DNA from: a virus
Virus record (IMG/VR): IMGVR_UViG_3300046355_000046
Span: 1 to 64,000 of that record
Length of the DNA: 64,000 nucleotides
Direction: 5' to 3' (one strand)
The position numbers were made by a program, and so were the translations under genes. Under the pieces are notes generated by a model. It did not search any database. It worked only from the letters and a program-made list of their open reading frames with translations, and was not told the origin of the DNA. This document shows, one piece after another, positions 28,082-55,600 of the stretch (positions within the stretch are counted from its first letter, which is position 1; each line of letters opens with the position of its first letter).

Positions 28082-28756
28082 ATGGCTAAAACTACTATAG
28101 GAGATGTAATCTCTAGAATGCGTACACAGATAAAGGCTGTTAGACAAGATGCTTTCTTGACTGACAGAGCTATCTATGCATTTATTCTAAAGCATTCTAA
28201 ATGGTTAATGAAGCGTGAAGATGGTAAGAATAAACTTCTTGCTTATTCCGGTGTAGTTCAAACTATGGATTTTGTAGAACTTATAGAAGTAGATAAAGTA
28301 GAGGCGTGTTGCACAGGATTAACTTCTGACTGTACTATTAAACGTACAAAGGACAAGATGCCAATCTTTATGCAAGGATATAATGGTCCACTTATTCGTT
28401 CTACTACATCTATTGATGGTTCAGAAGAACTTCAATCAACCAACCCTAGTACATTCTTATCTTTATCTAAATCTAAAAACTTTAAGTACAATAAGTCTAA
28501 ATACTATTGGTACTTAAATGACTACTTATACTTTCCTAATATTGAATGGGATGCTGTACGTATAGAAGGTATCTTTGAAGAAGACATTTCTGTATTTACA
28601 TGTGCTGCTGATAGCTGTATTCAAAAGACAGATCAACCATTCAATGTACCAGATTATTTATTTGGTGAGATTGAAACTAACGTATTTAAAGATCTAATGG
28701 GAATGATGCAGATTCCATCAGATACTTCTCAAGATAAACAGAATGTACTTCGATGA
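28082..28756 (+). CDS. Tail ring/adaptor protein
   Basis: YYWYLNDYLYF...VRIEGIFEE...PFNVPDYL...IPSD..xD pattern and synteny with crAss-like ring proteins. Confidence 0.65.
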   Translation: MAKTTIGDVISRMRTQIKAVRQDAFLTDRAIYAFILKHSKWLMKREDGKNKLLAYSGVVQTMDFVELIEVDKVEACCTGLTSDCTIKRTKDKMPIFMQGYNGPLIRSTTSIDGSEELQSTNPSTFLSLSKSKNFKYNKSKYYWYLNDYLYFPNIEWDAVRIEGIFEEDISVFTCAADSCIQKTDQPFNVPDYLFGEIETNVFKDLMGMMQIPSDTSQDKQNVLR

Positions 28757-29625
28757 AAACTGAATTATCATATAGAACATTTGACCAACTTCTTGATGAG
28801 GTTGCTACAGACTTTGTTACCTACAGCAATGAAGGTATGATAGAGCCTGCTCAGCTTATCAAGGTGGCACAAAGAGTTAACTATGACTTAGGTCTTAGAA
28901 TCCACGGAACTAAAGAAAAAGTACTAGACATAGAAAAAAAGAAGACTAAGCTTCCTAGTGATTTTTATGTACTAAACTATGCACATCTTTGTGGACGCTA
29001 CACTGTAACTCAATCTGTAATGTCAGGTCGTGAAACAGAAAACGTTATTTTAAAGAATGATCTTTGTAGAAAGTGTGGACAACCTGATCCTCAATGTAGT
29101 TGTGAAAAGACATATACTGTAGAGTGCAAAACTGGAGAGAACATTCATGTACAAGTTGTAGAAAAGCGTAAGTATGAAACACGTACTTATGATACCTTTG
29201 AACGTATGCATATTGCTACTTCTACAGGAAAGATAGATGCTCTTAATGATAATGCAAGTGGCCGCACTGGATATATAAAAAATGGATTTATATACACAAA
29301 TGTAGATGAAGGTCAATTGTTTATTTCTTACCAAGGTGCTCTTGAAGATGACGGTGGAAACTTATTAGTGCTAGATCATCCTGTGATTAATGAGTACTAT
29401 GAGTATGCAATGAAACAACGCATTCTTGAAAACTTATATATTAATGGTGAGGAAGTTACACAAAAGATGCAGCTTATTGAACAACGTTTAAAAGCAGCTC
29501 GTAATAATGCATTAAGTATTGTTAACACTCCAGACTTTGCAGAGATGTATAAGGTATGGCAAATGAACCGTAAAGCTCAGTATAACCGATATTATGATAT
29601 GTTTAAAAGCACTAATGGCTTTTAA
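28753..29625 (+). CDS. Tail tubular (ring) protein, Ttub-like
   Basis: YIKNGFIYTN...ISYQGALEDDGGNLLVLDHP..EYYEYA pattern; ATGA overlap; just upstream of the tail stabiliser. Confidence 0.7.
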   Translation: MKTELSYRTFDQLLDEVATDFVTYSNEGMIEPAQLIKVAQRVNYDLGLRIHGTKEKVLDIEKKKTKLPSDFYVLNYAHLCGRYTVTQSVMSGRETENVILKNDLCRKCGQPDPQCSCEKTYTVECKTGENIHVQVVEKRKYETRTYDTFERMHIATSTGKIDALNDNASGRTGYIKNGFIYTNVDEGQLFISYQGALEDDGGNLLVLDHPVINEYYEYAMKQRILENLYINGEEVTQKMQLIEQRLKAARNNALSIVNTPDFAEMYKVWQMNRKAQYNRYYDMFKSTNGF

Positions 29626-29628
29626 TAT

Positions 29629-29988
29629 ATGAAATTAAGTACTACCATAAAAATACCAACGTATAGTTGTAAGCTCATAGTGGTAGTGGTGGAAAGTGTA
29701 TCTGTAGCAGCAGAGAAACTTTACAAGAAGTACAAGATTAAAGATGATTTTGGAGGAGAGGCTGAAGGAGCTTTAGTAATACCAGATATAGATAATTACT
29801 ATCTTTTACTAGGTGATCAGTTCTTAACTCATAATACAATTGCCCATGAACTTTATCATGCTGTAGTTAGAATAACAGAAGATAGAGATATAACAGATGA
29901 AGAGGCACAAGCTTGGCTGGTTGGTCATCTTACTGGAGAAATATATAAATTTTTGGACAAGAAGAAGTTAGTAATTAAACATGGCTGA
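29629..29988 (+). CDS. Small zincin-like metalloprotease (HExxH)
   Basis: TIAHELYHAV...DEEAQAWL: HExxH plus a downstream Glu ligand. Confidence 0.65.
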   Translation: MKLSTTIKIPTYSCKLIVVVVESVSVAAEKLYKKYKIKDDFGGEAEGALVIPDIDNYYLLLGDQFLTHNTIAHELYHAVVRITEDRDITDEEAQAWLVGHLTGEIYKFLDKKKLVIKHG

Positions 29989-32900
29989 AAATACACAGAA
30001 CCCTACATCTACCACTAACCTTTTTAATAAGGGTATGGTTAAGGATTACAATGAAACCTTCGTTGGTGAGGGATTGTGGACACATGCCCGTAATGCTGTA
30101 AACAACTCACATGATGGTCAGATAGGTGTTATAGGTAATGAACCATCTAACTTACATTGTGTAACTCTTCCTTATACAATGATTGGTTGCATACATCTAA
30201 CAGATGATATGTGGGCCATCTTTACCACTGATGACGTAAACTCTGAGATTGGTATCTTTGATGAGAGCCAATGCTCTTATACAAAAAAGGTTAATTCTCC
30301 TTGTTTAAACTTTAAGCGTTCTAATCTTATTACAGGAACTAGTCGTAGACGTTATGACTGTGAGCGTCCTGTGTATTGGTCTGATGGATTAAATCCAGAC
30401 AGATTCATGGACTTAGAAAATCCTCCTTTTAAATATACAGAATCTATTAGTAACGGATGTGTAACTAAACTCTATACTACAGAACTTAACTGTGAAGAGA
30501 TTCGTTTAACATCTCTTATTACACATCCTTGTATTATTCTAGAGAAAGGTAAAGCTAGTGGTACTCTTCCTAATGGATCATACCAAATAGCTATTGCTTA
30601 TACTATTAATAAAGTTAAGGTATCTGACTACCTTGGTTTATCAGAAGTACAATCATTGTTTAGCCATCAAAATCTTAGTTCTTCTTTAGAAGTAAAGATT
30701 ACTACAATAGATAAAGATTTTGAAGAGTTTGAGTTAGTTATACTAGCTCAGATTAATGGTCAGACTATTGCACGTAGAGTTGGCTACTACTCTACTAATC
30801 AAGGAACTATTTATTTAGATGCTCTAAGTAACGACTTTGAGACTATACCTATTTCTCAGATTGTTGTTAGAACAGAACCTATTGAAAAATCTGATGCTAT
30901 TTACACGGTAAATAATTACATGTTACGTGTAGGTACATACAGTAAGACTAAGTTTAACTATCAACCGCAAGCTAATAGCATTCAAGCTAGATGGGTTGCC
31001 GTTGAGTATCCTGCTAACTATTATGTAAAAGGTGGTAATAACACTGGTTACATGAGAGATGAACAATATGCATTCTTTATTAGATGGGTATATAACACAG
31101 GAGAACGTTCTGAGTCATATCATATTCCTGGTAGAGTGGCTATGTCTACTGATACAGCTTTAGCTAATGGTACAGATGCATATGAAAATCAAGAAGGCAT
31201 TCAGTTAGAGAAGTGGCAAGCAAGTAATACAGCTACTGTAGAGACAACTACTCCTTCTGTATTAGCAGATGGTGGACGTGTTGTAGCTAAAGGTAAAATG
31301 GGTTATTGGGAATCTACAGAATTATATCCTTCTAATAGAGTGGATATATGGGGCAACCTTTGTGGTCAACCAATTAGACATCATAAGTTTCCTGATGTTA
31401 CAATTACTGGTGGTGATGTAGTTAATCACTTTACTAATGATGGTAATAACATTGTTATCCTAGGTGTAGAGTTTCATAATATTACTAAACCAGTTGATGT
31501 TAACGGAAATGTTATTACGTCAATTGTTGGGTACGAGGTATTACGTGGATCAAGAGAAGGACATAAGACTGTTATAAGTAAAGGATTGATTAATAACATG
31601 AGAGAATACTCTGTTCCTAATCAGACTAACATTACTGGTTTATATCAGAACTATCCATTTAACGATTTAAGAGAAGATAGTTATTTAACTTCTCAAGAGC
31701 AATTAGGTGATAATGGTGGTCCTGATGCTAGTTCAAGTAAGTTAAATGGATACAAGAAAGATGTTCTATCATTCCATGGACCTGATGTAACTTTTAGCAC
31801 ACCTTATTTAAGTAGTAGTGAAGTAAAATTATATCAAGAGATTTATGGTGAATCTAATGGTAGATTTGAAACTCCATATAAACATCCTAAGTTTAAACTT
31901 CCAACAAACTTTACAGATTTATTAACTAATGTTTTAGCAGCAGTTGCTACTATAGCAAAACTTGTTGGTGCATTAGCTGGTGCAGATACTAAAGTAGAAT
32001 TTCAAGGAACAGATGATATTCCATTAACACAAAGTTTACTTGCTCCTCATAGAGCAGAAGCTATCTCAGGAGCAATCTTTGGTTTAGCTAATGGATGGAT
32101 TGGTACAACTGGTATTGTTGGAGGTAATGAAGCAGCATCTGTTAAACGTACATTTGCTAATAGTGCAATTACTGTAGCTAATGCTGTTGTGTTAGGTGCT
32201 ATGGCTACTATACAAATAGATGTTACTTCTGAACAATTCATGAAGTTAATCTTAGCTATTATTCCTTATAAACAATATGCTGCACAATATGTAGCTCATG
32301 GTTACTATAATAAGTCTAGAACAACATTAGAAGGAAATAGAAGAAGAAAGATTGTTGAGTCTAGTTATGTAAACTCTGACATTCAGTCGTTTACTGCTAA
32401 CTCACAAAACTACATGGTTAATAACTTTAACCGTGGAAAGTTTGTAATAATTAAGACAAACGCTGATGTAAATAATCCAACTACTGTAGATAACAGTAGA
32501 TTCTTGATTAGTGAAAAAGATGGTTCATTATATTCTACTTACCAAAGTACTGTATCTGGACATTATGGGGCGTTAAAGATATCTCTTCCGTCACAGTATG
32601 GTCAGTTAGATAGTTTAAAACAAATACCTATTTCTTTCTGTATAGAAGATGTAACTACATCTAATACTACTAAGATAACATCTAATGTTTATTTTGGTGG
32701 TGATGTGTACATTAACAGATTTACAGAAAAGAATAGCATGTTGTTTTTTAACACATGGTTATATGGTGAGCCTAATGGTGCAGAGTTAGATTATACTATG
32801 TACTTTAGCATGCCTTATCCTAGATTCTGGATTAATAACACTAATCTATCTGGAGGATTATTTAAACTAGCAAGTCAGTTTAGAGTGTTAGATCATAGAA

Positions 32901-34600
32901 AGTCTAGTACATTCCATATCAGTAGAGGATACTTTTATTTATTTAACTCTGGTGTACGTGACTTCTTTGTAGAATCTGAAGTAAATGTAGCCTATAGAGA
33001 TTGGGAAGATCGTCCAGAAAAACGTCACTATGATAATAACGGACTAACTGATTTAAGTACTTTATTTAGATCAGATGTAATTAAAGAACCTAACTACTAT
33101 AAATATGATTACTCATTAAGTGTATCTAAGTTATTTAACTCACAGATCACTTGGGGTAATGTGCTTGATAGAGACTTTGATCCTAAGAAAGCACAGACTT
33201 GTTACAGCTATTATCCTAATAGAGTTATTTATTCTCTTCCACAACAAGATGAAAGTAAGAAAGATAACTGGAGAGTTTATCTAGCTAACAACTATAAAAC
33301 ATTTGGTAGCCGTGTTACATCAATTAAGTCTGTTAATAAAACAGGTGCTTTATTTATGATGGCTTATCAGAGTCCTATGCAGTTTATGGGTGTAGAGGAA
33401 CTTAAGTTAGATGGCACTGGTGCTAAGATTACTATTGGAGATGGTGCATTGTTTAGCGGTCCACAACAACTTCAAGCATTAGTAAATGCTGATGAATCAT
33501 TTGAGTATGCATCATGTCAAAGTAAGTATGCTACATTAGGATGTACGCATGGTGTATTCTGGGTAAGTCAGAACCAAGGAAAGATATTCCAGTATGCTGG
33601 ACAGCTTAAAGAAATATCTAGAGAAGGAATGAAATGGTGGTTTGCTAAATACCTACCTTCTGAATTACTTACTAAGTATCCTAATTATCCATTGTACGAT
33701 AACCCTGTAAAAGGTGTAGGGGTACAGATGACGTATGACAATACTAATGAGATAATCTATATCACTAAGAAAGACTATAAGCCTTTATTTAATGATATGG
33801 GTCACGATGCTGATGGTAAGTTTTATAGAACTATTAATGGTCTTAAGACATACTATGACTTTAATAATCCATTAGCATTTGAGAATGCATCATGGACTAT
33901 TAGTTATGATCCAAAGAATCAAACATGGTTATCATTTCATGACTGGAATCCAACGTTTGTGATTCCAGGAAAGGCTCATTTCATGAGTGTGGATACCAAC
34001 TCTATATGGAAGCATAATGTACGTTGTGATTCTTATGCAAATTTCTATGGTAAAGACTATCCATTTGAAGTGGAGTTTATCTCAGCTACAGGCCAGCAGG
34101 TTAACTCAGTAAGAAACATTGAATACTTACTAGAAGTATATAAGACGCATAATAACTGTGCAGATAAATTCCATGTACTAGATCAAAACTTTGATCAAGC
34201 TATTATTTCTAACTCTGAGCAAGTGTCTGGTTTACTTGAGTTAAACGTAAAGCCTAAAAACAATCCTGTTGCAGCTTTATCTTATCCTCAGATTCAACCT
34301 AACTCTATAAAGATATTATTCTCTAAAGAAGAAAATAAATATAGATTCAATCAGTTCTGGGATATAACAAAGGATCGTGGTGAGTTTAATACTCTTACTA
34401 ACCAGTCTATGTTTATCACAAAAGCTAATGGTTACCAGTATGAGATTAATCCTCAGTATGTTGATTACGGTAAAGCAGCTTTAGAGCGTAAGAAGTTTAG
34501 ACATCACGTAAATAAAGTATGGTTAAGAAAATCAAAGAGTGGTGATCTAAAAATGTTGTTTAAGATATCTAATCAAAAGTTAACAGTATCACATAGATAA
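29981..34600 (+). CDS. Tail stabilisation / muzzle protein (Tstab-like, 1539 aa)
   Basis: N-terminal FNKGMVKD...ARNAV..IGNEPSN; beta-propeller-like; C-terminal WTISYDP..WLSFHDW; position after Ttub. Confidence 0.8.
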   Translation: MAENTQNPTSTTNLFNKGMVKDYNETFVGEGLWTHARNAVNNSHDGQIGVIGNEPSNLHCVTLPYTMIGCIHLTDDMWAIFTTDDVNSEIGIFDESQCSYTKKVNSPCLNFKRSNLITGTSRRRYDCERPVYWSDGLNPDRFMDLENPPFKYTESISNGCVTKLYTTELNCEEIRLTSLITHPCIILEKGKASGTLPNGSYQIAIAYTINKVKVSDYLGLSEVQSLFSHQNLSSSLEVKITTIDKDFEEFELVILAQINGQTIARRVGYYSTNQGTIYLDALSNDFETIPISQIVVRTEPIEKSDAIYTVNNYMLRVGTYSKTKFNYQPQANSIQARWVAVEYPANYYVKGGNNTGYMRDEQYAFFIRWVYNTGERSESYHIPGRVAMSTDTALANGTDAYENQEGIQLEKWQASNTATVETTTPSVLADGGRVVAKGKMGYWESTELYPSNRVDIWGNLCGQPIRHHKFPDVTITGGDVVNHFTNDGNNIVILGVEFHNITKPVDVNGNVITSIVGYEVLRGSREGHKTVISKGLINNMREYSVPNQTNITGLYQNYPFNDLREDSYLTSQEQLGDNGGPDASSSKLNGYKKDVLSFHGPDVTFSTPYLSSSEVKLYQEIYGESNGRFETPYKHPKFKLPTNFTDLLTNVLAAVATIAKLVGALAGADTKVEFQGTDDIPLTQSLLAPHRAEAISGAIFGLANGWIGTTGIVGGNEAASVKRTFANSAITVANAVVLGAMATIQIDVTSEQFMKLILAIIPYKQYAAQYVAHGYYNKSRTTLEGNRRRKIVESSYVNSDIQSFTANSQNYMVNNFNRGKFVIIKTNADVNNPTTVDNSRFLISEKDGSLYSTYQSTVSGHYGALKISLPSQYGQLDSLKQIPISFCIEDVTTSNTTKITSNVYFGGDVYINRFTEKNSMLFFNTWLYGEPNGAELDYTMYFSMPYPRFWINNTNLSGGLFKLASQFRVLDHRKSSTFHISRGYFYLFNSGVRDFFVESEVNVAYRDWEDRPEKRHYDNNGLTDLSTLFRSDVIKEPNYYKYDYSLSVSKLFNSQITWGNVLDRDFDPKKAQTCYSYYPNRVIYSLPQQDESKKDNWRVYLANNYKTFGSRVTSIKSVNKTGALFMMAYQSPMQFMGVEELKLDGTGAKITIGDGALFSGPQQLQALVNADESFEYASCQSKYATLGCTHGVFWVSQNQGKIFQYAGQLKEISREGMKWWFAKYLPSELLTKYPNYPLYDNPVKGVGVQMTYDNTNEIIYITKKDYKPLFNDMGHDADGKFYRTINGLKTYYDFNNPLAFENASWTISYDPKNQTWLSFHDWNPTFVIPGKAHFMSVDTNSIWKHNVRCDSYANFYGKDYPFEVEFISATGQQVNSVRNIEYLLEVYKTHNNCADKFHVLDQNFDQAIISNSEQVSGLLELNVKPKNNPVAALSYPQIQPNSIKILFSKEENKYRFNQFWDITKDRGEFNTLTNQSMFITKANGYQYEINPQYVDYGKAALERKKFRHHVNKVWLRKSKSGDLKMLFKISNQKLTVSHR

Positions 34601-37089
34601 TGAACAAGCTATTACAATATATGATTGGTGCAGGTAATGTATCAGATAAGTTTCTTCCACAGCTTACTAAAGCTCAGAAAGGATTTACTGCATTACCTAC
34701 TTTCCAAAAAGCTGGACAGGTTCAAACAAAAAAACCTATTGTAGATCCTAGAGTGTTTCCTCAAGAGACACTTGCTAATAGACAAAAGGTTTATAAAACT
34801 GTAAGACCAACAGATTATACTGATCTAAAAAATTATATCAGATACGTATTTAATAATGAGAGAGATGAGTATGATGATGCTCGTAGTGAGGAAGCTTTTA
34901 AGATGTATTTAGGTTTACAACCTAAACCAGAATACTTTAGACCTTCTAAGTATAAACCTACAATAAACGCTGATCCTAATGGTTTTTATTATAGTGCAGA
35001 TCAACAGTTAGAGCAAGATATATTTGATAGCTTTAAAGATAAAGTAAAGCCAGGTCAAATCATGCCTACTGATGAATATTTTGTAAATAGTTATTTTCCT
35101 GGTAACCCAAATGCATTTTGGGAAGGAGATAAACAGATGGTTAAGTTTGGACCTAATGATGAAAATCCATTTGTGGGTAGACCAATGGTTAGTCGTGCAA
35201 GAGCTTTAGGTAAGTTTGTGGTTAGTAGAGGTTCTGATAATCAAGGTGATTATTTATCTTATGCTGATCAGTATGATTTTCCTAAAAAGCTTCAAGATAA
35301 AATGCAAGGACAACCATATAAAATCTATGGTAGAGTTTACTATCCAAAAGATAAAAAAGCTTATGGTGGCTTTTTTAAACAAGGAGGTGGACAAACTGTA
35401 ACTAATCCTTTCTGGGAAGGCTCGTATGATTTTAAACCAATTAACCAAGGTACAGTTGATGAGATAAAATCTGAAATGGCTGGGTATATTCAGTCACCTT
35501 TGTATGCACAAAGACAGGCTATGCATCCAGAAAGATATATAGGTAATAATCTTAGTTACTATGAAGACCCTAAATCATTCCAAAATTCTACAGCTTCTGC
35601 TAAAAGATCATATAGATTAATGGATCTTTATGATCAACCTACTCAGATTAAAAACATTGGAAAGTTTAAGGATTACTATGATCCTAAGAAAAGAAAGACT
35701 GTGTTAAACAGTTCTAATTTAGAAAGTGTTGTAGCTCATGAGCTTGGTCACTCTTTATTCAAAGGTGAAACTTTAAGTACAGTTTTAGATTCAGACTATG
35801 ATAATAGTAAATATTGGGATGACTTAGCAGCTGGTAATAAAACTAAATTTGGTACTTCTTTAAATAAAGCAGAAGTTGATAAGTTTAAAAGTTTTGCTTA
35901 TCCTATAGCTAATGAAGACGAGCACTATGATAATAGAGGGTATGGAGATTTTGCTAATGAGTCTTATGCTGACTTAACAGGTATTAGACATTTGTTATAT
36001 AAGAATGGAATTACTAAGAAGTTTGGTGATAATATTAACAGAACTATTTATGAAAAAGCTTTAAAGAATAAGCAGATTCAGAATGACCCTGTATTTAAAA
36101 GAATGCAGCAGAAGTATAGCCCTGGTAAAATCATTCTTCTAAATAACACTATTGCACAAAATACTGATACTAAATCAGATCCAAACATGGCTGAATATGG
36201 TGGACCTATCTTAGATTCTCGTGGTCAATGGGCTCATCCTGGTAAAGTAACTCGTATACCTGGATCTAATATCACTATGCAAGGTGTTAACTATCCTGTA
36301 TATGGTGTAGGCTCTAATGGTCAACAACAGATGATGCAGCCAGGGCAAGAATATAACTTTGGTGGTGCATCTTATGTAGATGAGTATCCTATAATGCAGA
36401 ATGGTGGTTTACTAAGCAGATCTGTTACTTGTTCTAATTGCGGATGGTCATGGAAAGCTATAGATGGAGGTCATGATCCTATGACATGTCATAAGTGTGG
36501 AGGTGCTGTTAAGATGCAGGGTGGGGGAACGGCTTATGTTGATTCTGTACTAAATGCTAACAAGAATCTTAATTGGGTGCAAAGACTATATCCAAAGAAT
36601 ACACCTTCTATGCAGATACCTGGAGTAAAAGGGCCTAGTACACATTATATGCAAAGCGGTGATGGTCGTGTATATCCAACAGTAGTACAAACGCCTAATG
36701 GTTCTTTAAAGTATTTAGGTAAAGATGCATTTGATTATGCAGACTCTACTAAGACTTATATACAGTTTCCTTCTGATGCTGCAGCAACTTGGTTTGGTGA
36801 AAATTATAAAAAAGGAACTGGCGTGTTACCAAAGAATGCATCAGGCGGTCAACATGGTGGATTAGATAGATGGTTTGCAGAAAAGTGGGTAGATGTTAAA
36901 AGTGGTAAAGCATGTGGTAGACAAGAAGGAGAAAGTCGTAAAGGTTATCCAGCATGTCGTCCTTCTAAAAGAGTAAACTCTCAGACACCTAAGACATCAT
37001 CTGAAATGAGTCCAGCAGAAAAAGCTAAATTTAAAGCTAGTAAAACTAGCAGTGAACGTATATCATATAATCATAAAAGAAATAAATAG
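34600..37089 (+). CDS. Modular cargo polyprotein 1 (zincin HELGH domain, CxxC Zn-ribbon, DUF5872-like C-terminus; xxGG linkers)
   Basis: HELGH at 35737-35751; CSNC...CHKC at ~36430-36498; modules bounded by FQKAG, AYGG/FKQGGG, MAEYGG, MQNGG, MQGGG, ASGG/QHGG. Confidence 0.6.
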   Translation: MNKLLQYMIGAGNVSDKFLPQLTKAQKGFTALPTFQKAGQVQTKKPIVDPRVFPQETLANRQKVYKTVRPTDYTDLKNYIRYVFNNERDEYDDARSEEAFKMYLGLQPKPEYFRPSKYKPTINADPNGFYYSADQQLEQDIFDSFKDKVKPGQIMPTDEYFVNSYFPGNPNAFWEGDKQMVKFGPNDENPFVGRPMVSRARALGKFVVSRGSDNQGDYLSYADQYDFPKKLQDKMQGQPYKIYGRVYYPKDKKAYGGFFKQGGGQTVTNPFWEGSYDFKPINQGTVDEIKSEMAGYIQSPLYAQRQAMHPERYIGNNLSYYEDPKSFQNSTASAKRSYRLMDLYDQPTQIKNIGKFKDYYDPKKRKTVLNSSNLESVVAHELGHSLFKGETLSTVLDSDYDNSKYWDDLAAGNKTKFGTSLNKAEVDKFKSFAYPIANEDEHYDNRGYGDFANESYADLTGIRHLLYKNGITKKFGDNINRTIYEKALKNKQIQNDPVFKRMQQKYSPGKIILLNNTIAQNTDTKSDPNMAEYGGPILDSRGQWAHPGKVTRIPGSNITMQGVNYPVYGVGSNGQQQMMQPGQEYNFGGASYVDEYPIMQNGGLLSRSVTCSNCGWSWKAIDGGHDPMTCHKCGGAVKMQGGGTAYVDSVLNANKNLNWVQRLYPKNTPSMQIPGVKGPSTHYMQSGDGRVYPTVVQTPNGSLKYLGKDAFDYADSTKTYIQFPSDAAATWFGENYKKGTGVLPKNASGGQHGGLDRWFAEKWVDVKSGKACGRQEGESRKGYPACRPSKRVNSQTPKTSSEMSPAEKAKFKASKTSSERISYNHKRNK

Positions 37090-37097
37090 TATTTAAA

Positions 37098-38315
37098 ATG
37101 GCAAACAAACCTAATAATCCTGCCTTATGGTCTAGAGCTAAGTCTATGGCCAAATCTAAATTTGATGTATATCCTAGTGCCTATGCTAATGGATGGGCTG
37201 CTAAGTATTATAAAAGTAAAGGTGGTACTTGGCGTAAAGCTGAATACGGTATGGAAGTAATGGGTGATGGTGGTACACCAGATAACCCTGGCTTTAATGC
37301 TTTACCTCCAGCAGTACAACAAAAAATCATAGATAATATGGCTCAAGGTGGAGAGAAGATGCCACCAGAGATTGCTCGTGCACGTTTTGCCGCAGCTGGT
37401 AATCTTGATCAAATGAGTAACTATGGTTATGCTTATGGAGGATATATTCCAGAAATGATGTATGGTGGATATGATTATATGGAAGAAGGTGGAGAACCTA
37501 ACGGTGGAATGGCATTAGGTCAGATGTCAGCAGTTGCTGATAAAATGAGTAGACTACGCCAATTTGTTTCTCCAGATCAAAACTTAGATCCATGGATTGC
37601 TTCTAAGCTTGCTGTAATTGATGATAGCGTAAATAGTATTTCTGATTATATGATGTATAATCCTGAAGCTCAAGGAGGAGGTGGAGAAAAAATGGGAGAG
37701 CAGTATGAGCAAGAGGATATGGAAGAAATGATGGCTAATGGTGGATACGTTGTTACAAGAAGTAATGATCGTAAAGGTAAAACACATAAAGTAACTGGTC
37801 CTGATGGAACTGTTAAATACTTTGGTGATTCTAAGTTAGGTCAGCATCCTAAAGATCCAGAACGTAAAGCAGCTTTCTATGCTCGTCATAAAAAGAACTT
37901 AGAGAATAACCCTTTCTTTAGAGCGTTTGCTAGAAAGACGTGGAAAGAAGGCGGTTCTACATTTAGTGGTAATGCATTCTATCAAGGTGGTGGATTTATT
38001 CCAGAATATGATATGTCATTTCCAGCAGACTATGCTGTAGAGATGATGGAACAAGGCGGTATCCATTTAGATCCATCTAAGAGAGGTACGTTTAAAGCTC
38101 AGGCTACTCGTATGGGTATGGGAGTACAAGAAGCTGCTTCAGCAATACTTGGTGCACCAGAAGGAAAGTATAGTCCAGCTATGAGGAAAAAAGCTAACTT
38201 TGCTCGTAACTTTGCTAAACAAGCAGGTGGTCCTGTAGAAGGTGAAGTAATGGATGTATCTCCAGAAGAATTAGATATGCTTCGTCAACAAGGTTATCAA
38301 TTTGAAATAATGTAA
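37098..38315 (+). CDS. Modular cargo polyprotein 2 (short basic and acidic modules; about 12 xxGG linkers)
   Basis: Linkers KAEYG, MGDGG, MAQGG, YAYGG, MMYGG, MEEGG, AQGGGG, MANGG, WKEGG, FYQGGG, MEQGG, KQAGG. Confidence 0.6.
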   Translation: MANKPNNPALWSRAKSMAKSKFDVYPSAYANGWAAKYYKSKGGTWRKAEYGMEVMGDGGTPDNPGFNALPPAVQQKIIDNMAQGGEKMPPEIARARFAAAGNLDQMSNYGYAYGGYIPEMMYGGYDYMEEGGEPNGGMALGQMSAVADKMSRLRQFVSPDQNLDPWIASKLAVIDDSVNSISDYMMYNPEAQGGGGEKMGEQYEQEDMEEMMANGGYVVTRSNDRKGKTHKVTGPDGTVKYFGDSKLGQHPKDPERKAAFYARHKKNLENNPFFRAFARKTWKEGGSTFSGNAFYQGGGFIPEYDMSFPADYAVEMMEQGGIHLDPSKRGTFKAQATRMGMGVQEAASAILGAPEGKYSPAMRKKANFARNFAKQAGGPVEGEVMDVSPEELDMLRQQGYQFEIM

Positions 38316-38317
38316 TT

Positions 38318-49600: not shown

Positions 49601-52600
49601 TGATCTATTAGAAGGATTGAACTACTACTTCTTTACAGAGTTATTCAAACGAGGAAATAATATAGATAGCATCTTAGGAAGTTTAGACAAGAAACAGTCT
49701 AATGCTTTATTAAATAATTTATGGAATAAATCTGTAGAGCAAGTATCTAATAACTTGTCTTTGATTAGTCCAAAGATTAACTCTACACTTAATGCTAACA
49801 TAGATGAGTTCTACAGAGAATTCAAAAAGAACTTAGACCGTTATGGTGTAATCTTCTCTGAAATAGAAGAAGATGAGAACAACGTTACAGATACTTTAGG
49901 TATCAGAGACGCTATTACAATTGACCCTAGAAGCATGACGTCTACAAACGTTATGTTATTACTTACTTCTTTACCACAGACTACTGTAACAAGAGGTAAA
50001 ACTGTCCTTGTAAAGAACGATCTTAACCAACCACGTTTAGCTAATACAGATAGAGTACATACAACCCTACTTAACGAACTTAGTAATGTAGTGAGTATTG
50101 TAGATAAAGACGGTGTTCGTAAAAATACTTTAGATCTAATGATGGAAAAATTAGATAAGAAGTACAAAACTGCAGACAATAACTACCGTGAAAACTATGG
50201 CTGGGTACGTAACTTAAAGCTACGTCTTAAATATGAGAACAACTTAGGAATTAAAACACCTGCTTCTACATTAAATAAAGAAGACGTTTTATTAAGAGTT
50301 TCATTTACTAAGAGTTTTAGCAATGCTAGATTCTCTCCAGAGAAACTTATTGTTTCTGATGAGGGATACATCTACAACACTAATCCGCTTATTAATGTAA
50401 ATGAGGATAGAATCCGTAATGAGTGGGCTAATAACTTAAAGGTAGCTGTTCAGAACAAACAGACTAACTTAGTTAAGATTGATAGCTCTGGTCGTATGAT
50501 GATCAATAGAAAGTCTGATGACTATATTGATCTAATGGATGAAGCTAAAGCTAGAAGTACATATGACTTGGCTACAGCTTTAAATGCACTAAGTATATTA
50601 GGTATTGAGTTTACTGCTACCTTAAATGAACTAGCACAGTTTGAGAACAGTATTCGTGAGCAAACTCTTCAGATTCTAGACGTAATGAAGTCAGGAGAAA
50701 TAGATGATATTGCTGATCTATTTGGTAGAAACGTAGTAGGTGGTAGAATTAACACACTTATTGCTATTGAATCTAAGTATAGCAGTGAAGATAATATCTT
50801 AAGTTACAATAATGCAGAAGGTCAGCAACAGTTTAGTGTTGGCCAACCGTCATTGTTAAGTAACATGATTAACATTTTGAATACAGTTAACTCACAAGAG
50901 GAGCTTATTCAGACTGCACCATGGTTAGGATTTATTGATGAGGAAGGTGAAGTAGTATTCAATGCTTACCAAACTAACTCAGAGCTTTTAAGAAAAGGCG
51001 GACGTTTGTTTGATATCAACGGAAAGCGTAAGAATAATACAGAAATTAGCTATCATGTTATTTCTGGTTTAGGTATTACGGAAGTTGATGGTAATAACAC
51101 AGCCAAACTTCAGTTCCCTGAGCGTGTAGCTAACAAGATTCACTTTTTGTTAAATAATGTTGTGTTCTCTAACATCAACTCAGATAAGAGTACAGAATAT
51201 GGTATTGGAATTCCTGGTAAGCTTATGGTAAGCAGAAGGGATATTCAGAAAATGATGACTACAGAAGACAAGAGTATTGTGGACATGTACGTAAATCATT
51301 TATATGATGAGATGTATGCTGCTACTATACAAGCTGATAGTCCAGTAGATATTCAATACTACCGTGATGGTGTATTTAACTTAGGTCACTTCAGAGATAT
51401 CATTGGTAAAGACATGATTGCTAAGTTCAATCAAGATGTCATTACTAACGAGATGGACTTTGAAGAGTTTATTGAAGAGAATAGAGAGTTAATTGAAGAT
51501 AAGATTACTACTTACATCAACAATAAGATTGAAGATACAGTTGCTTTCTTAAAAGACTTAGACTTGTTCATCAAGCCTGATACCTTTAAGAGTGACTTAT
51601 ATATTACAGATGCTATTGATAATGATGGCTTAGATGAAATGTTAGGTATCAAAGATACTCAAACATTAAACTACAGAACTGGAGGATATGATTCTGAGTT
51701 AAAGAGTCGTAGTGGATATACAGAAGATAATATCAGAACCATTGCTGCTATTCTTTCTTTAAACGAAGAATTACTTTTAACAGAGCAGCATAAGTTGATC
51801 TACGGTCACCCTGCCTTATATAAAGACTTACCTAAGCGTGCTAATGGTGCTACTTCTACTAAAGAAGCTTTTGTAGAAGATAGTGATGTTGTTGCTTGGA
51901 TGGATAATAACATGGTACGTAATGATGGCAAACTTCGTTCAGAAGAGACACATCAGACTATCAAGAACATATCATTTAAAGACATGGATGTAGTAAGTGC
52001 ATTCTATAATGATATTGCAGAAAGTACATATGCTGAAATGATTGCTTCTGGTATTACTAAAGAAATAGCAGAGAAAAAGATTGGTGCAAGATTTAATGAG
52101 CAAGGTCAGATCTCTGGATTGATTTTAAACAAGAAGAAAGAGTTTACAGGTATGATTAAAGCATACATGAACTTAAATGAAGCTGATGCCATGGCTATGG
52201 GTTTACCAGACGTAATTAGAGATATTCTATTTATGAGTGGTAAGTTTACTAGTCAACGTGAAGCTCAATGGGATTATGAGATTGCTTATGAGACTTTAGT
52301 TCGTTCTGGAGCTATGCCAAATGCTAAAGGTGAGACTATTAAAAAGTCAGATCCTCGTTATAAGTCTGCTAACAAAGCTCAAATAGAAGCTGCTAAAGAA
52401 ACATTTGATAAAGGAAATCCAGGGTATGTATTTGAGGTATTAAAGCCACAGTACTTTGGATATGCTCAGACAGATAATGTAACTCATCCAGTATTCTTGA
52501 AGCATGCTTTACAACCTAAGTTCTATCGTCACGTAGAAGGTAATCAGTTTGAGAAGCTTTACATAGCTGCTCAGAAAGATAAAGTAGATGTAATTGGTTT

Positions 52601-55600
52601 TGAGTCAGGTGAAAAAGTGGGTAACGTAACTACTACGGATGGAAACTTCTTACCAATCTATAATGAGGCTGGAGAGATTAATGTTGTAACATCAAACAAA
52701 GGATATGAGTTACCAACTGAATTGCCACGTCAGAGTCTATACAGTAGATTCTACGGAATTCAAGTTGAGCAATCTAGTAAGCCTAAAAAGTTCGTTGTAA
52801 AAGGAACTCAAATTACTAAACAAGTAATGAGTAACTTCTATGAGAATGGTGCTCCTGTTAATCCAACTATTGGCGGTCTTATCCAAGAGTATAACGAGAC
52901 TATTCGTGAGATGATGAGACTTGGTAAAGAAGAGCTTCTTAAAGAACTTGGTCTTGAGAAAAAAGGTGACTTCCAGTATGAAGCTAAAGATATCTCTAGA
53001 TTAGTTAAGATCTTAAGAAGAGAAGCTGAGAGCAGAGACTTACCAGATAACATGATTAATGCTATCAACTACATTGTAAATGAAGATGATACACAATCAT
53101 TAGAGTATGAGTTTGATACTTTAATCAACCGTGATAAGATAGATAATATTCTTAACTCAATTGTGGACAGCAGAATTATCTCTCAGAAAATGAGTGGTAA
53201 GTCTTCACCGCAAGTTGCTAGCACTACATATGAAGCTGCTCCAAGAAACTATGTTTATCTTAAAGATGGTATTTACAAGACACTTACTAAGTCAGAACTT
53301 AAAGGATTAACAGAAGAAGAGAAAGCGTCTATTCGTATGCAGTCTTCAGATCTTAAGTTTTACCACTCTAAAGATGGTAAGATTCAAGGTGTAGAGATGT
53401 ATATTACATGGCCCTTCACTGAGGTTACTCCAGAAGAGTTAGGATTAAAATTAGTAAATGGTATTTACTTAATGCCGGAAGGTGGTATCAAAGGTATTGA
53501 TAATGAGTTACTTAAGGCTATTGGTTTCCGTATTCCTACACAAGGTATGAACTCAATTGAGAGTATTATCATTAAAGGATTTACTCCTATTACTAATGGT
53601 GATATGATTGTAGTTCCTTCTGAGATTGTTGGTAAAGCTGGATCTGACTTTGATATAGATAAGCTTAATATCTATTTAGGTAATTACTTTGTAGATATTC
53701 TTGGTAAGGATTACTCTGGTAAAGACTTTAGAGACTTCATGATTAATGACATGATCTCTTCTGGAGCTGATCAAATATATGCAGATAACGTAATGAACGT
53801 TATTACATCTGAGCAGTTCAAGCAGATTAATGAATCTACATATACAGATAGAGGTAAGATTGTTAAAGGAGCTAAGACTAGCTTAAGTGACATTAGTGCA
53901 TCTAAAGAAACACAAGAAGACTTAGCATTTATTAAGGCTAGTCTTTCTAGATATAATGCTTCTGTAAAAGGACAAAAGGTTATCCGTTATATCAAGCCTA
54001 CACTTGGTACTAAAGAAAGCTTACAGAATAAGTTAATCAACATAATGTCTGAACTTATTCTTAGACCAGAGAACTATGCTCAGCTTGTAGCTCCAAATAC
54101 AACAGATACTCTTAAGGATCTTGCAGAAGAGATTAAAGGATGGAAAGTTGATGCTGGTACTAAACAACTAGAAGATGAGAAGTCTCCTACATACTTAAGA
54201 ACATTTATTGGATCTAATAGTATCCGTGAGCGTTACTTAACAGCTAAAAGAATGGTAGGTATTGCAGCGGTACACTCTACGTTCCATGTAATGGCTCAAG
54301 TTAGTGGTCTTAAACTAAATAATAGATATAGTTCTAAGAGCATCTATTACTTAAACGCTAAAGGAGAAGATACTAAAACAGTAAACATCAAGCTTACTCA
54401 CCACGGTAGAGATGAGAATGGTCTATACTCAATTGGGCATAGACTAGACAAAGCAGGTGCATTTATTAGTGAACTTATCTCACAAGCATTATCTGGTTTT
54501 GTGGACGGTGCTAAAGATCCATTTGTATTTGACTTAAACTTTTCATTAAATACAGCTAGTACTTGGTTCTATTTACAACATCATGGTGTACCAGTAGATG
54601 AGATAGCTTACTTCTTTAATCAACCTATCTTAGATAGCTTGTTCAAAGAAACATCTAAGAATAGATCTTCATTCAAAGTGATTAACGGTGAGAACCTTAC
54701 TAGAAAAGAATTATTCTATAAAGTTATCGCACCTTACTATAACAAAGTAGTAGGTGGTGATTTAGAAGCTATGCTTGCTGGAGCAGCACAATCATCTAAG
54801 GCTCAAGAAGATGCGTTACAAAAACTTATCTTAGCTGAGCTTAATGAGATTAGAGATAGCCTTGAAACATTTGATAGTAAAGAATTAATTAAAGCTATCA
54901 AAGATGGTAGTAATGCTGATGCAAGATTACAGATTGCTGTAATAATGGATTATGTAGAGTATGAAGCTCAGGCTAGATTGATGTCTAACTTCATGCAGGC
55001 TATTGGATATGATACTAATAAGACCAAAACTGTACAAGAAAACATGTTACAAATTGGTCGTTGGGAAAGATCTAAACAAGAGAACTTTGTTAATAATCCG
55101 GATTCTATTCTAGAAAGTACTTTCTTAGGAGAGATGAAAGATCAAAAAGAAGATATCTTTAGCATGTTTAGAAACTTCTTTATTACATTATCTCCTGAGA
55201 TCCAAGAAGTGTTCCAGCCATTGTATGATAAGATAGATAATCCAGAGTTCTTTATTATGAAGGATGATGCTATCAACTTAATTAATAGATACCAAAACTT
55301 TGTAATTGCTTACTTACTTCATACTACACCGTATATGAATACTGAAGGAAAGCAAGAAACATTAAATACTTTATATCAAGACTTGTTTACTGGAGAGAAT
55401 TCTTTTGCTGGTACATTATACAAGTATAAGAATTCAGAAGATCCAAATATCTCTGACAACTTGATTATCAAGGAGTTAGTACCGTTGATGACAGATGATG
55501 CTACTAAGACAGATAATATCATGTTGTTCAGAAATAAGATAGATACTTTCCAGATAAATAATGTCATAGAAGCTTATAACAACTTAAGAAGTTATGGTGA

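Follow-up and report, generated by a model that had tools for sequence, protein, structure and literature searches.

A Gly-Gly junction at cassette boundaries in three cargo-region genes of a crAss-like phage

Three consecutive open reading frames (ORFs) of 829, 405 and 954 amino acids (aa), located on the + strand at 34600..37089, 37098..38315 and 38318..41182, raise the question of what a short recurring motif ending in Gly-Gly (GG) does in the proteins they encode, and whether the proteins are cut there. The ORFs lie in a stretch of 64,000 nucleotides (positions 1 to 64,000 of the virus record IMGVR_UViG_3300046355_000046 in IMG/VR), hereafter called the window. An earlier note on this DNA had described them as cargo genes of a crAss-like phage whose products are packaged polyproteins, cut by a protease at hydrophobic-x-x-Gly-Gly during head maturation. 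The motif proved to be enriched and to be associated with breakpoints of homology among relatives. Our preferred reading, which we hold with about even confidence, is that a crAss-like podovirus here encodes its cargo in the three ORFs, as uncleaved, or mostly uncleaved, polyvalent proteins of a beads-on-a-string type, in which the junction would serve as a helix-ending hinge.

Enrichment of the junction motif

The positions at which the motif had been reported in the 829-aa ORF (FQKAG at 34702, KAYGG at 35356, MAEYGG at 36187, MQNGG at 36394, MQGGG at 36514 and NASGG at 36835) were all correct, and the six copies attributed to the 954-aa ORF (KAQTG, FQMGG, FEYGG, AAYGG, YQLAG and FNIGG) were present. 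Ten GG runs were counted in the 829-aa ORF and 13 in the 405-aa ORF, which carries the densest string of junctions. Numbers of GG dipeptides exceeded those expected from Gly content in each of the three (12 observed vs 6.8 expected in the 829-aa, 16 vs 6.2 in the 405-aa and 11 vs 7.4 in the 954-aa ORF) and were close to expectation in the remaining ORFs. The pattern [MFYW]xxGG occurred 17 times over the three ORFs pooled, against 3.0 expected, a count reached in none of 20,000 composition-preserving shuffles. Its density was 7.8 per 1000 aa, compared with 0.88 in the remaining 25,053 aa of the proteome (approximately ninefold). Considered separately, the 405-aa ORF was very strongly enriched (10 vs 1.07 expected, 0 of 5000 shuffles) and the 829-aa ORF significantly so (4 vs 0.96, p = 0.013), but the 954-aa ORF alone did not reach significance (3 vs 0.93, p = 0.07).

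That last figure is what a chance explanation could appeal to, in which a composition rich in Gly, Met and Tyr produces the pattern by itself; the motif definition of the earlier note was moreover loose, accepting AG and TG variants as well. The pooled shuffles speak against this explanation, and so do the invariance of the junction at aligned positions in relatives and its location at homology breakpoints (see below). Between them the shuffles, the BLAST breakpoints and the alignment of the 405-aa family effectively refute a compositional artefact, to which we assign almost no probability.

Glycine codons at the junctions were used in the same way as other Gly codons (GGT 59% vs 62%), so the constraint acts on the protein, and a motif or recombination signal in the DNA at the junctions was ruled out on the same ground. 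The description of the proteins as strings of self-contained modules held for the general architecture, but some segments between motifs measure just 3–9 aa (YIPEMMY, YDYMEE, EPN), too short for domains, and in the 954-aa ORF several GG runs are found inside one conserved domain rather than at a module boundary.

Cassette exchange among relatives

Relatives were collected as 80 loci from viral contigs (L001–L080), fetched via a 1539-aa anchor protein encoded upstream of the three ORFs (38–94% identity), and their cargo ORFs made up a non-redundant set of 179 ORFs (163,355 aa). Each relative carries one to four cargo ORFs, 253 to 2400 aa long, between the anchor gene and the homologue of a 792-aa ORF that follows the three ORFs in the window. 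The window ORFs match this cargo only in blocks, the order and position of which shift between relatives. Blocks recurring in the 829-aa ORF span residues 1–257, 534–603, 593–643 and 740/753–829, and their ends (257, 534, 603, 643 and 740/753) fall on GG runs at 256, 534, 602, 641 and 749–754.

When the 179 ORFs were compared all-vs-all by BLAST, internal right ends of high-scoring segment pairs peaked exactly on the last Gly (386 vs a baseline of ~ 40), and left ends peaked at −3 to 0, the first Gly. As related sequences inflate such counts, endpoints in the window ORFs were collapsed to independent breakpoints, 16 of 42 of which lay within 5 aa of a GG run (8.3 expected, p = 0.004). The 829-aa ORF contributed 6 (of its 12 breakpoints, with all four of the best-supported among them) and the 405-aa ORF 7 (of 11), but the 954-aa ORF only 3 (of 19). 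The strongest homology breakpoints of the 829-aa ORF, at residues 257, 537, 603, 643 and 751, are all on GG runs. In an alignment of the 405-aa ORF with 37 homologues, cassettes were inserted, deleted or replaced between invariant GG pairs. G131–132, G285–286 and G377–378 were invariant in the 38 sequences, and every one of ~ 10 large indel blocks abutted a GG. Homologues of this ORF comprise more than 4,000 near-length and ~ 1,900 shorter proteins. The suggestion that modules are gained, lost and swapped as cassettes at the junctions is thus borne out by the blocks in relatives, the indels of the 405-aa family and the breakpoint test, the 829-aa and 405-aa ORFs carrying the last of these and the 954-aa ORF failing to conform.

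Across the 179 ORFs, GG runs were found at 1.16 per 100 aa, vs ~ 0.5 in the upstream genes and the muzzle gene. Residues enriched over background before GG were Met (5.5×), Tyr (3.2×) and Phe (2.4×) at position −3, Gln (3.2×), Lys (2.1×) and Ala (2.0×) at −2, and Tyr (3.3×) at −1. Proline was depleted at −4 to −1 (0.02–0.04 vs 0.061) and enriched at +2 and +3 (0.09–0.12). Among more distant cultured relatives, gp040 of Cellulophaga phage phi4:1 displayed a modest enrichment of the motif (4 vs 0.68 expected) and none was detected in gp31 and gp32 of Flavobacterium phage Fpv1, which indicates that the dense punctuation is specific to this clade.

Two further elements were noted among the relatives' cargo genes. 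One, GG-x(0-4)-WL(N/D)KY(K/N), ends 15 cargo ORFs at most two residues from the stop codon and has ~ 25 internal copies, while a WLDKY-x-GGG form occurs at N-termini (examples of the element are at L037:14731-17529, L021:14587-16473 and L066:15094-19176); it marks sites where one phage has separate ORFs and another a single fused one. The other is a group of small ORFs starting MK(T/L)LPLTKG..ALVDDDDYYWLSQWNW, inserted between cargo genes of relatives (L032:19507-20283, L051:18322-18960, L069:22519-23016 and L078:23830-24321) and absent from the window, which look like mobile endonuclease-type genes.

Hinge, cleavage site or interaction motif

Under the preferred reading, cassettes would be small and independently folding (helical mini-domains, a Zn ribbon, DUF5872 and a zincin peptidase), each ending in [M/Y/F]-[Q/K/A]-x-Gly-Gly, often followed by x-Pro, and the junction would be a helix-terminating flexible hinge and not an obligatory cleavage site. 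Such a hinge would insulate neighbouring modules, would allow extended storage and module-by-module passage via portal and tail, and would be the one place tolerating in-frame insertion, deletion and gene splitting, which would account for the coincidence of ORF boundaries and of gained or lost cassettes with it. Both the proline pattern and an AlphaFold2 (AF2) model of the 405-aa ORF are consistent with a helix that runs out into a flexible hinge: in the model, 7 of the 13 GG runs are preceded, at a distance of 2–6 residues, by the end of a helix, and the low-confidence linkers are predicted to be disordered.

The proteins to compare are the cargo proteins C1 and C2 of crAss001 (gp45 and gp46; Bayfield et al. 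2023, PMC10172136), encoded, like the window ORFs, directly after ring and muzzle genes and before giant polymerase genes. Partly unfolded storage and ejection by way of the tail are assumed for both sets of cargo. The 405-aa family aligned with gp45 residues 374–474 (hhalign probability 79%, E = 1.7e-5), and the 405-aa ORF could be connected to gp45 via intermediate cargo ORFs (blastp E-values of 4e-11 to 1e-6); the match between residues 251–364 of the 954-aa family and gp45 481–571 was weak (hhalign E = 0.0011, probability 20%). This homology and the location behind the muzzle gene make the pair of 405-aa and 954-aa ORFs a probable split and expanded version of crAss001 C1. We keep the identity at probable, short of demonstrated membership, because the Pfam model crAss_CARG1 (PF25725) gave no match at E ≤ 10 in a six-frame search of the contig; for the 954-aa ORF, an Atlas search led to crAss_CARG1 clusters (score 0.89) and hmmscan returned no family. 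Compared with crAss001, three ORFs stand here for one C1, there are extra cassettes (zincin, Zn ribbon, DUF5872), and [MFYW]xxGG is far denser, at 10 vs 1.07 expected in the 405-aa ORF and 3 vs 1.4 in gp45.

The gp45 protein carries five A-[Y/F]-G-G-type motifs, at 209, 263, 332, 427 and 562. Cryo-electron microscopy resolved two segments of C1, residues 214–245 in the tail barrel and 425–552 on the portal, the latter as one compact portal-bound domain in clear density (PMC10172136). The motifs at 209, 263, 427 and 562 bracket both resolved pieces, an arrangement that would suit cleavage, and none of the C1 mass-spectrometry peptides quoted in the same paper crosses a GG. However, hhalign pairs GG377–378 of the 405-aa ORF with GG447–448 of gp45, which places a homologous junction inside the resolved 425–552 domain and argues against cutting there.

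Several observations count against the hinge. The AF2 model of the 405-aa ORF is of low confidence (mean predicted local distance difference test score (pLDDT) 48) and was not used for fold searches, for which reason the helix-cap argument is a weak one. Both junction glycines are strictly invariant, and A-[Y/F]-G-G is kept as far as crAss001 gp45, which exceeds what is usual in a flexible linker. Proline is mildly depleted at +1 of GG, as expected at a scissile bond, and stand-alone small ORFs keep a GG-ended N-terminal leader (e.g. MKELDGIYPMYPIPKYKKGG-IHIKKSKRGTF), which fits a cleaved leader. Lastly, the crAss001 mass spectrometry was performed on trypsin-digested virion protein (PMC10172136), so intact cargo sizes are not given by it.

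The proline depletion and the leaders belong equally to the case for the rival proposal, that packaged polyproteins are cut at hydrophobic-x-x-Gly-Gly by the zincin of the 829-aa ORF or by a protease escaping recognition, during or after head assembly or after ejection, with the release of many mini-proteins. Also in its favour are the specificity and conservation of a junction with invariant GG at module boundaries, and the matches of junction-flanked segments to stand-alone families of small proteins (DUF5872, DUF5754). A candidate enzyme is embedded in the 829-aa ORF itself, in the form of a zincin (gluzincin-like) metallopeptidase module with an invariant HExxH, and embedded zincins in polyvalent proteins have been predicted to act as processors (Iyer, Burroughs, Anand, de Souza, Aravind 2017, PMC5512222).

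The module occupies residues 264–533 (35389..36198, + strand) between a KAYGG/FKQGGG junction before and a MAEYGG junction after, with HELGH at 35737–35751, and H380, E381 and H384 are invariant in 13 homologues. No Pfam model matched it. Its AF2 model (pLDDT 77, predicted template modelling score 0.80) retrieved PepO, neprilysin and Zmp1 as top matches in VIA (Z 7.7–7.8, root-mean-square deviation 4.2–4.6 Å over 172–180 aligned residues), with lethal factor at Z 5.6 and thermolysin and ArdC otherwise found in structure searches; hits were almost exclusively zincins. With VIA Z below 8 the fold match alone is middling, and Foldseek matches were weak, mostly to zincins, none of them at E ≤ 0.001. 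It is the conserved HExxH together with the zincin fold that places residues 264–533 among the zincins. As the enzyme for all junctions the module is a poor fit: it has only 13 homologues in a near-length search, in the closest relatives and a few others, whereas the junction is found in thousands of proteins.

No other protease came to light. Pfam searches of 68 contig ORFs gave no peptidase family among the listed 25 of 30 matched families, and none was found by Pfam and PHROG in the head module (10 ORFs) of a 98%-complete relative or by Pfam in 31 cargo ORFs of relatives. A recurring boundary motif is present here, but the scans showed no conserved cognate protease, nor a head protease of the kind for which the earlier note proposed a search. 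The crAss001 paper (PMC10172136) and the text of a Crassvirales review mention neither protease nor proteolysis, and we found no literature on crAss-like phages with a virion polyprotein or proteolytic processing. Fpv1 gp21, annotated as "peptidase", was considered as a candidate protease and rejected, since this contig encodes no homologue of it. A prohead protease is generally lacking in podoviruses whose assembly uses a scaffold (P22, T7, N4).

The closest processed systems are those of adenovirus, whose protease (AVP, adenain) cuts substrates at (M/I/L)xGG|x, of African swine fever virus, whose pS273R cuts polyproteins at GG|x, and of phages T4 and phiKZ, with the substrates of gp21 and gp175. 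They share with the window a short recurring motif, Gly-Gly or another fixed pair, and internal virion proteins, and by this likeness the small basic modules here could be released inside the capsid. They differ in having a cognate protease, of which family scans found none here. The adenain and double-glycine consensus has its hydrophobic residue at P4, but cutting after GG would put it at P5 in the window, a shift of one residue. Some sites would have Pro at P1′ (EYGG-P, QAGG-P), some are separated by only 3–9 aa, and no cargo ORF ends exactly in GG. No positive sign of cutting emerged. The earlier claim of cutting during head maturation fared badly on three counts, namely the empty peptidase scans, the rarity of the zincin and the junction within the resolved gp45 domain, and we regard cleavage as unlikely, though it retains more weight than the other alternatives.

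The very short units rich in Tyr, Met and Glu between GG runs at residues 111–137 of the 405-aa ORF invite a different explanation, namely that the junction, with its variants, acts as a short linear interaction motif, or supplies aromatic and Met "stickers" to a Gly-spaced disordered chain, serving in packaging, in docking to portal, rings or muzzle, or in condensation of cargo inside the capsid. Counted as variants are YGG-[Y/F]-IPE, GG-x-WL(N/D)KY, an N-terminal K-V-R-I-x-x-x-LPKAQ-x-G and a C-terminal ELTxxEIxxIxxxGGxVEF. Short inter-GG regions of the 405-aa ORF are predicted to be disordered, and many relatives have conserved terminal motifs at the ends of their ORFs, both of which are consistent with such a role. 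Most junctions, however, follow predicted helices of larger modules and match cassette boundaries, neither of which is required of a binding motif, and no partner was identified; we consider this explanation distinctly improbable, more so than cleavage.

Polyvalent and cargo proteins are already known as a general kind; a conserved junction and its role as a cassette boundary were not found described in the literature searched. Few parts of crAss-like phages, themselves among the most abundant phages known, are as poorly understood as their cargo proteins. The junction offers a parsing rule for thousands of otherwise unannotatable "hypothetical" proteins, as well as a list of effectors that may be injected (zincin, ADP-ribosyltransferase, YkuD, DUF5872, DUF5754). 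Whether the chains are cut at the junctions or threaded intact bears on how crAss001 C1 sits in the tail and on the portal. If cleavage were true, the two C1 pieces would be separate fragments and not one stretched chain, the host would receive dozens of distinct mini-proteins and peptides from a few packaged polyproteins, and this would be, as far as we could find, the first reported proteolytic maturation system in Crassvirales.

The cargo block and its neighbours

The window covers the first 64 kb of a viral contig of 86,457 bp, estimated by CheckV to be ~ 66% complete; close relatives in IMG/VR measure 120–128 kb. Its gene order runs from tail ring protein 2 and ring protein 1 through the muzzle to the 829-, 405- and 954-aa ORFs, the 792-aa ORF, a 4242-aa ORF and an 1805-aa ORF. 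Homologues of ring protein 2 (28082..28756, +; Pfam CrAss_Ring_2 at 28106–28744, E = 5.2e-24) and ring protein 1 (28753..29625, +; CrAss_Ring_1 at 28909–29616, E = 1.3e-15) both scored above the curated cut-offs. The 1539-aa anchor (29981..34600, +) matched virion structural families in PHROG (E = 1.5e-67 and 7.8e-44) and, by tblastn, virion structural proteins of Cellulophaga phi4:1, Flavobacterium Fpv1 and others, with a weak blastp match to crAss001 gp44 (E = 0.012). Its assignment as the muzzle comes mainly from gene order, the position being as in crAss001. The region had no megablast match among 50,697 phage records.

The 792-aa ORF (41259..43637, +), at the position of cargo protein C2, had no junction enrichment; its N-terminal 110–450 aa are conserved among relatives. 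Junction enrichment was likewise absent from the 4242-aa ORF (43653..56381, +), a putative virion RNA polymerase with a weak blastp match to crAss001 gp47 (E = 5.9e-5), which is annotated as a putative RNA-polymerase subunit. No Pfam match was obtained for the 4242-aa and 1805-aa ORFs. A DFDID motif (GSDFDIDKLNIY), which we take to be the crAss-type catalytic motif, is present in the 4242-aa ORF. This ORF looks like a fused giant virion RNA polymerase, the corresponding crAss001 genes being three and separate.

The part of the genome missing from the contig was read from the 98%-complete relative, the muzzle protein of which is 94% identical. Its head module contains TerL, a portal protein (both recognised through PHROG families), an acidic 428-aa scaffold-like protein encoded between the portal and capsid protein genes, and a major capsid protein (Crass_capsid, E = 4.7e-31). 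The tail ring proteins in the window and this capsid protein place the phage among the Crassvirales-like. The label "cargo genes of a crAss-like phage" follows from gene order, after the crAss001 atlas (PMC10172136), and the earlier assignment to that region is upheld by the two ring families, the muzzle-sized structural protein and the hhalign match to gp45. In Cellulophaga phi4:1, the products of the genes that follow the muzzle homologue carry virion-protein annotations based on tandem mass spectrometry (MS/MS) proteomics; gene order and the partial homology to gp45 suggest that the window cargo proteins may be packaged as well.

Several unrelated domains, effector-type ones included, come together in the 829-aa ORF, as in polyvalent proteins (zincin, Zn ribbon and DUF5872). 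The polyvalent proteins described by Iyer et al. (PMC5512222) are similarly multi-domain, delivered together with DNA, furnished with unrelated effector domains and extensively mosaic, with the packaging here being deduced from the genes. Embedded zincin-like metallopeptidase, ADP-ribosyltransferase and cell-wall-directed domains are common to both, if relatives of the window are included. Those proteins differ in that no conserved junction motif is described for them (neither "linker" nor "glycine" occurs in the text of PMC5512222), in that the window modules are mostly mini-domains of 20–70 aa to which no function is assigned, and in that the zincin here is only a candidate member of their MPTase family. 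Pfam searches of the 31 cargo ORFs of relatives detected ADPrib_exo_Tox, YkuD, DUF3597 and DUF5754. ADPrib_exo_Tox was found in one cargo ORF (E = 3e-8; among the 30 of alignment A2, L003–L071) and the YkuD L,D-transpeptidase domain in two; the ADP-ribosyltransferase and YkuD domains are candidate injected effectors.

Beyond the zincin, the 829-aa ORF contains the most conserved cargo module, GG-PILDSRGQWAHPG...YVDEYPIMQNGG at residues 534–603 (36199..36408, +). It recurs in ~ 50 of the 80 loci, with ends at 534–537 and 603–613, and is N-terminal in the first cargo ORF of most relatives; an Atlas search with this module gave no usable match. A CxxC...CxxC zinc-ribbon-like module, read from sequence, follows at residues 604–643 (36409..36528, +), ends in VKMQGGG and recurs as a separate homology block (residues 593–643) in many loci. 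The C-terminal part of DUF5872 occupies residues 722–816 (36763..37047, +; Pfam PF19197, E = 5.5e-13, profile positions 20–110), and an N-terminal part of DUF5872 lies at residues 5–50 of the 405-aa ORF. Compared by sequence with PDB chains, the 829-aa and 954-aa ORFs and the 405-aa family gave nothing credible, only chance matches to a nanobody and RPA32.

The 405-aa ORF closes with a C1-like module and a conserved C-terminal tail at residues 320–405 (38055..38312, +), which read GG-IHLDPSKRGTFKAQ...ARNFAKQAGG and PVEGEVMDVSPEELDMLRQQGYQFEIM, respectively. The tail, ~ 25 aa long and encoded at 38232–38312, closes one cargo ORF in nearly every relative, with the consensus x-[ED]-[LV]-[TS]-x-[ED]-[EQ]-[IL]-x-x-[IL]-x-x-x-G-[GY]-x-[IVF]-E-[FIY]-[ILM]-stop.

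The 954-aa ORF consists of a variable N-terminal 150 aa, a conserved core at residues 170–356 (38825..39385, +) bounded by a nearly invariant FEYGG (G169) and AAYGG (G355), and a long C-terminal region in which GG runs are scarce; tblastn of this ORF against the phage collection gave no match. The motif M-K-[IV]-R-[IV]-x-x-x-x-LPKAQ-x-G is found at the start of the third cargo ORF in relatives, and in the window at 38318–38365 and 38765–38830. Its second, internal occurrence (MIKIRITGKPENLEFEYGG, residues 150–170) points to an extra N-terminal piece fused to the conserved core. Within the core, I-x-G-x-x-H-x-x-GG-V-x-[LIM]-x-[VL]-[PK]-E-G (INGKRHSQGGVPLNVPEG) lies at residues 233–251 (39014–39070), with G234, H237 and G241 invariant in 31 relatives, and is shared with Flavobacterium Fpv1 gp31 (blastp E = 5e-4) and, by eye, with Cellulophaga phi4:1 gp040, a protein annotated as a virion protein from MS/MS proteomics. 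Outside the cargo genes, the capsid protein of the 98%-complete relative (L084:2894-4510) carries YQMSSFGG-KNV at residues 57–67, with aromatic and Met residues upstream of a GG near its N-terminus.

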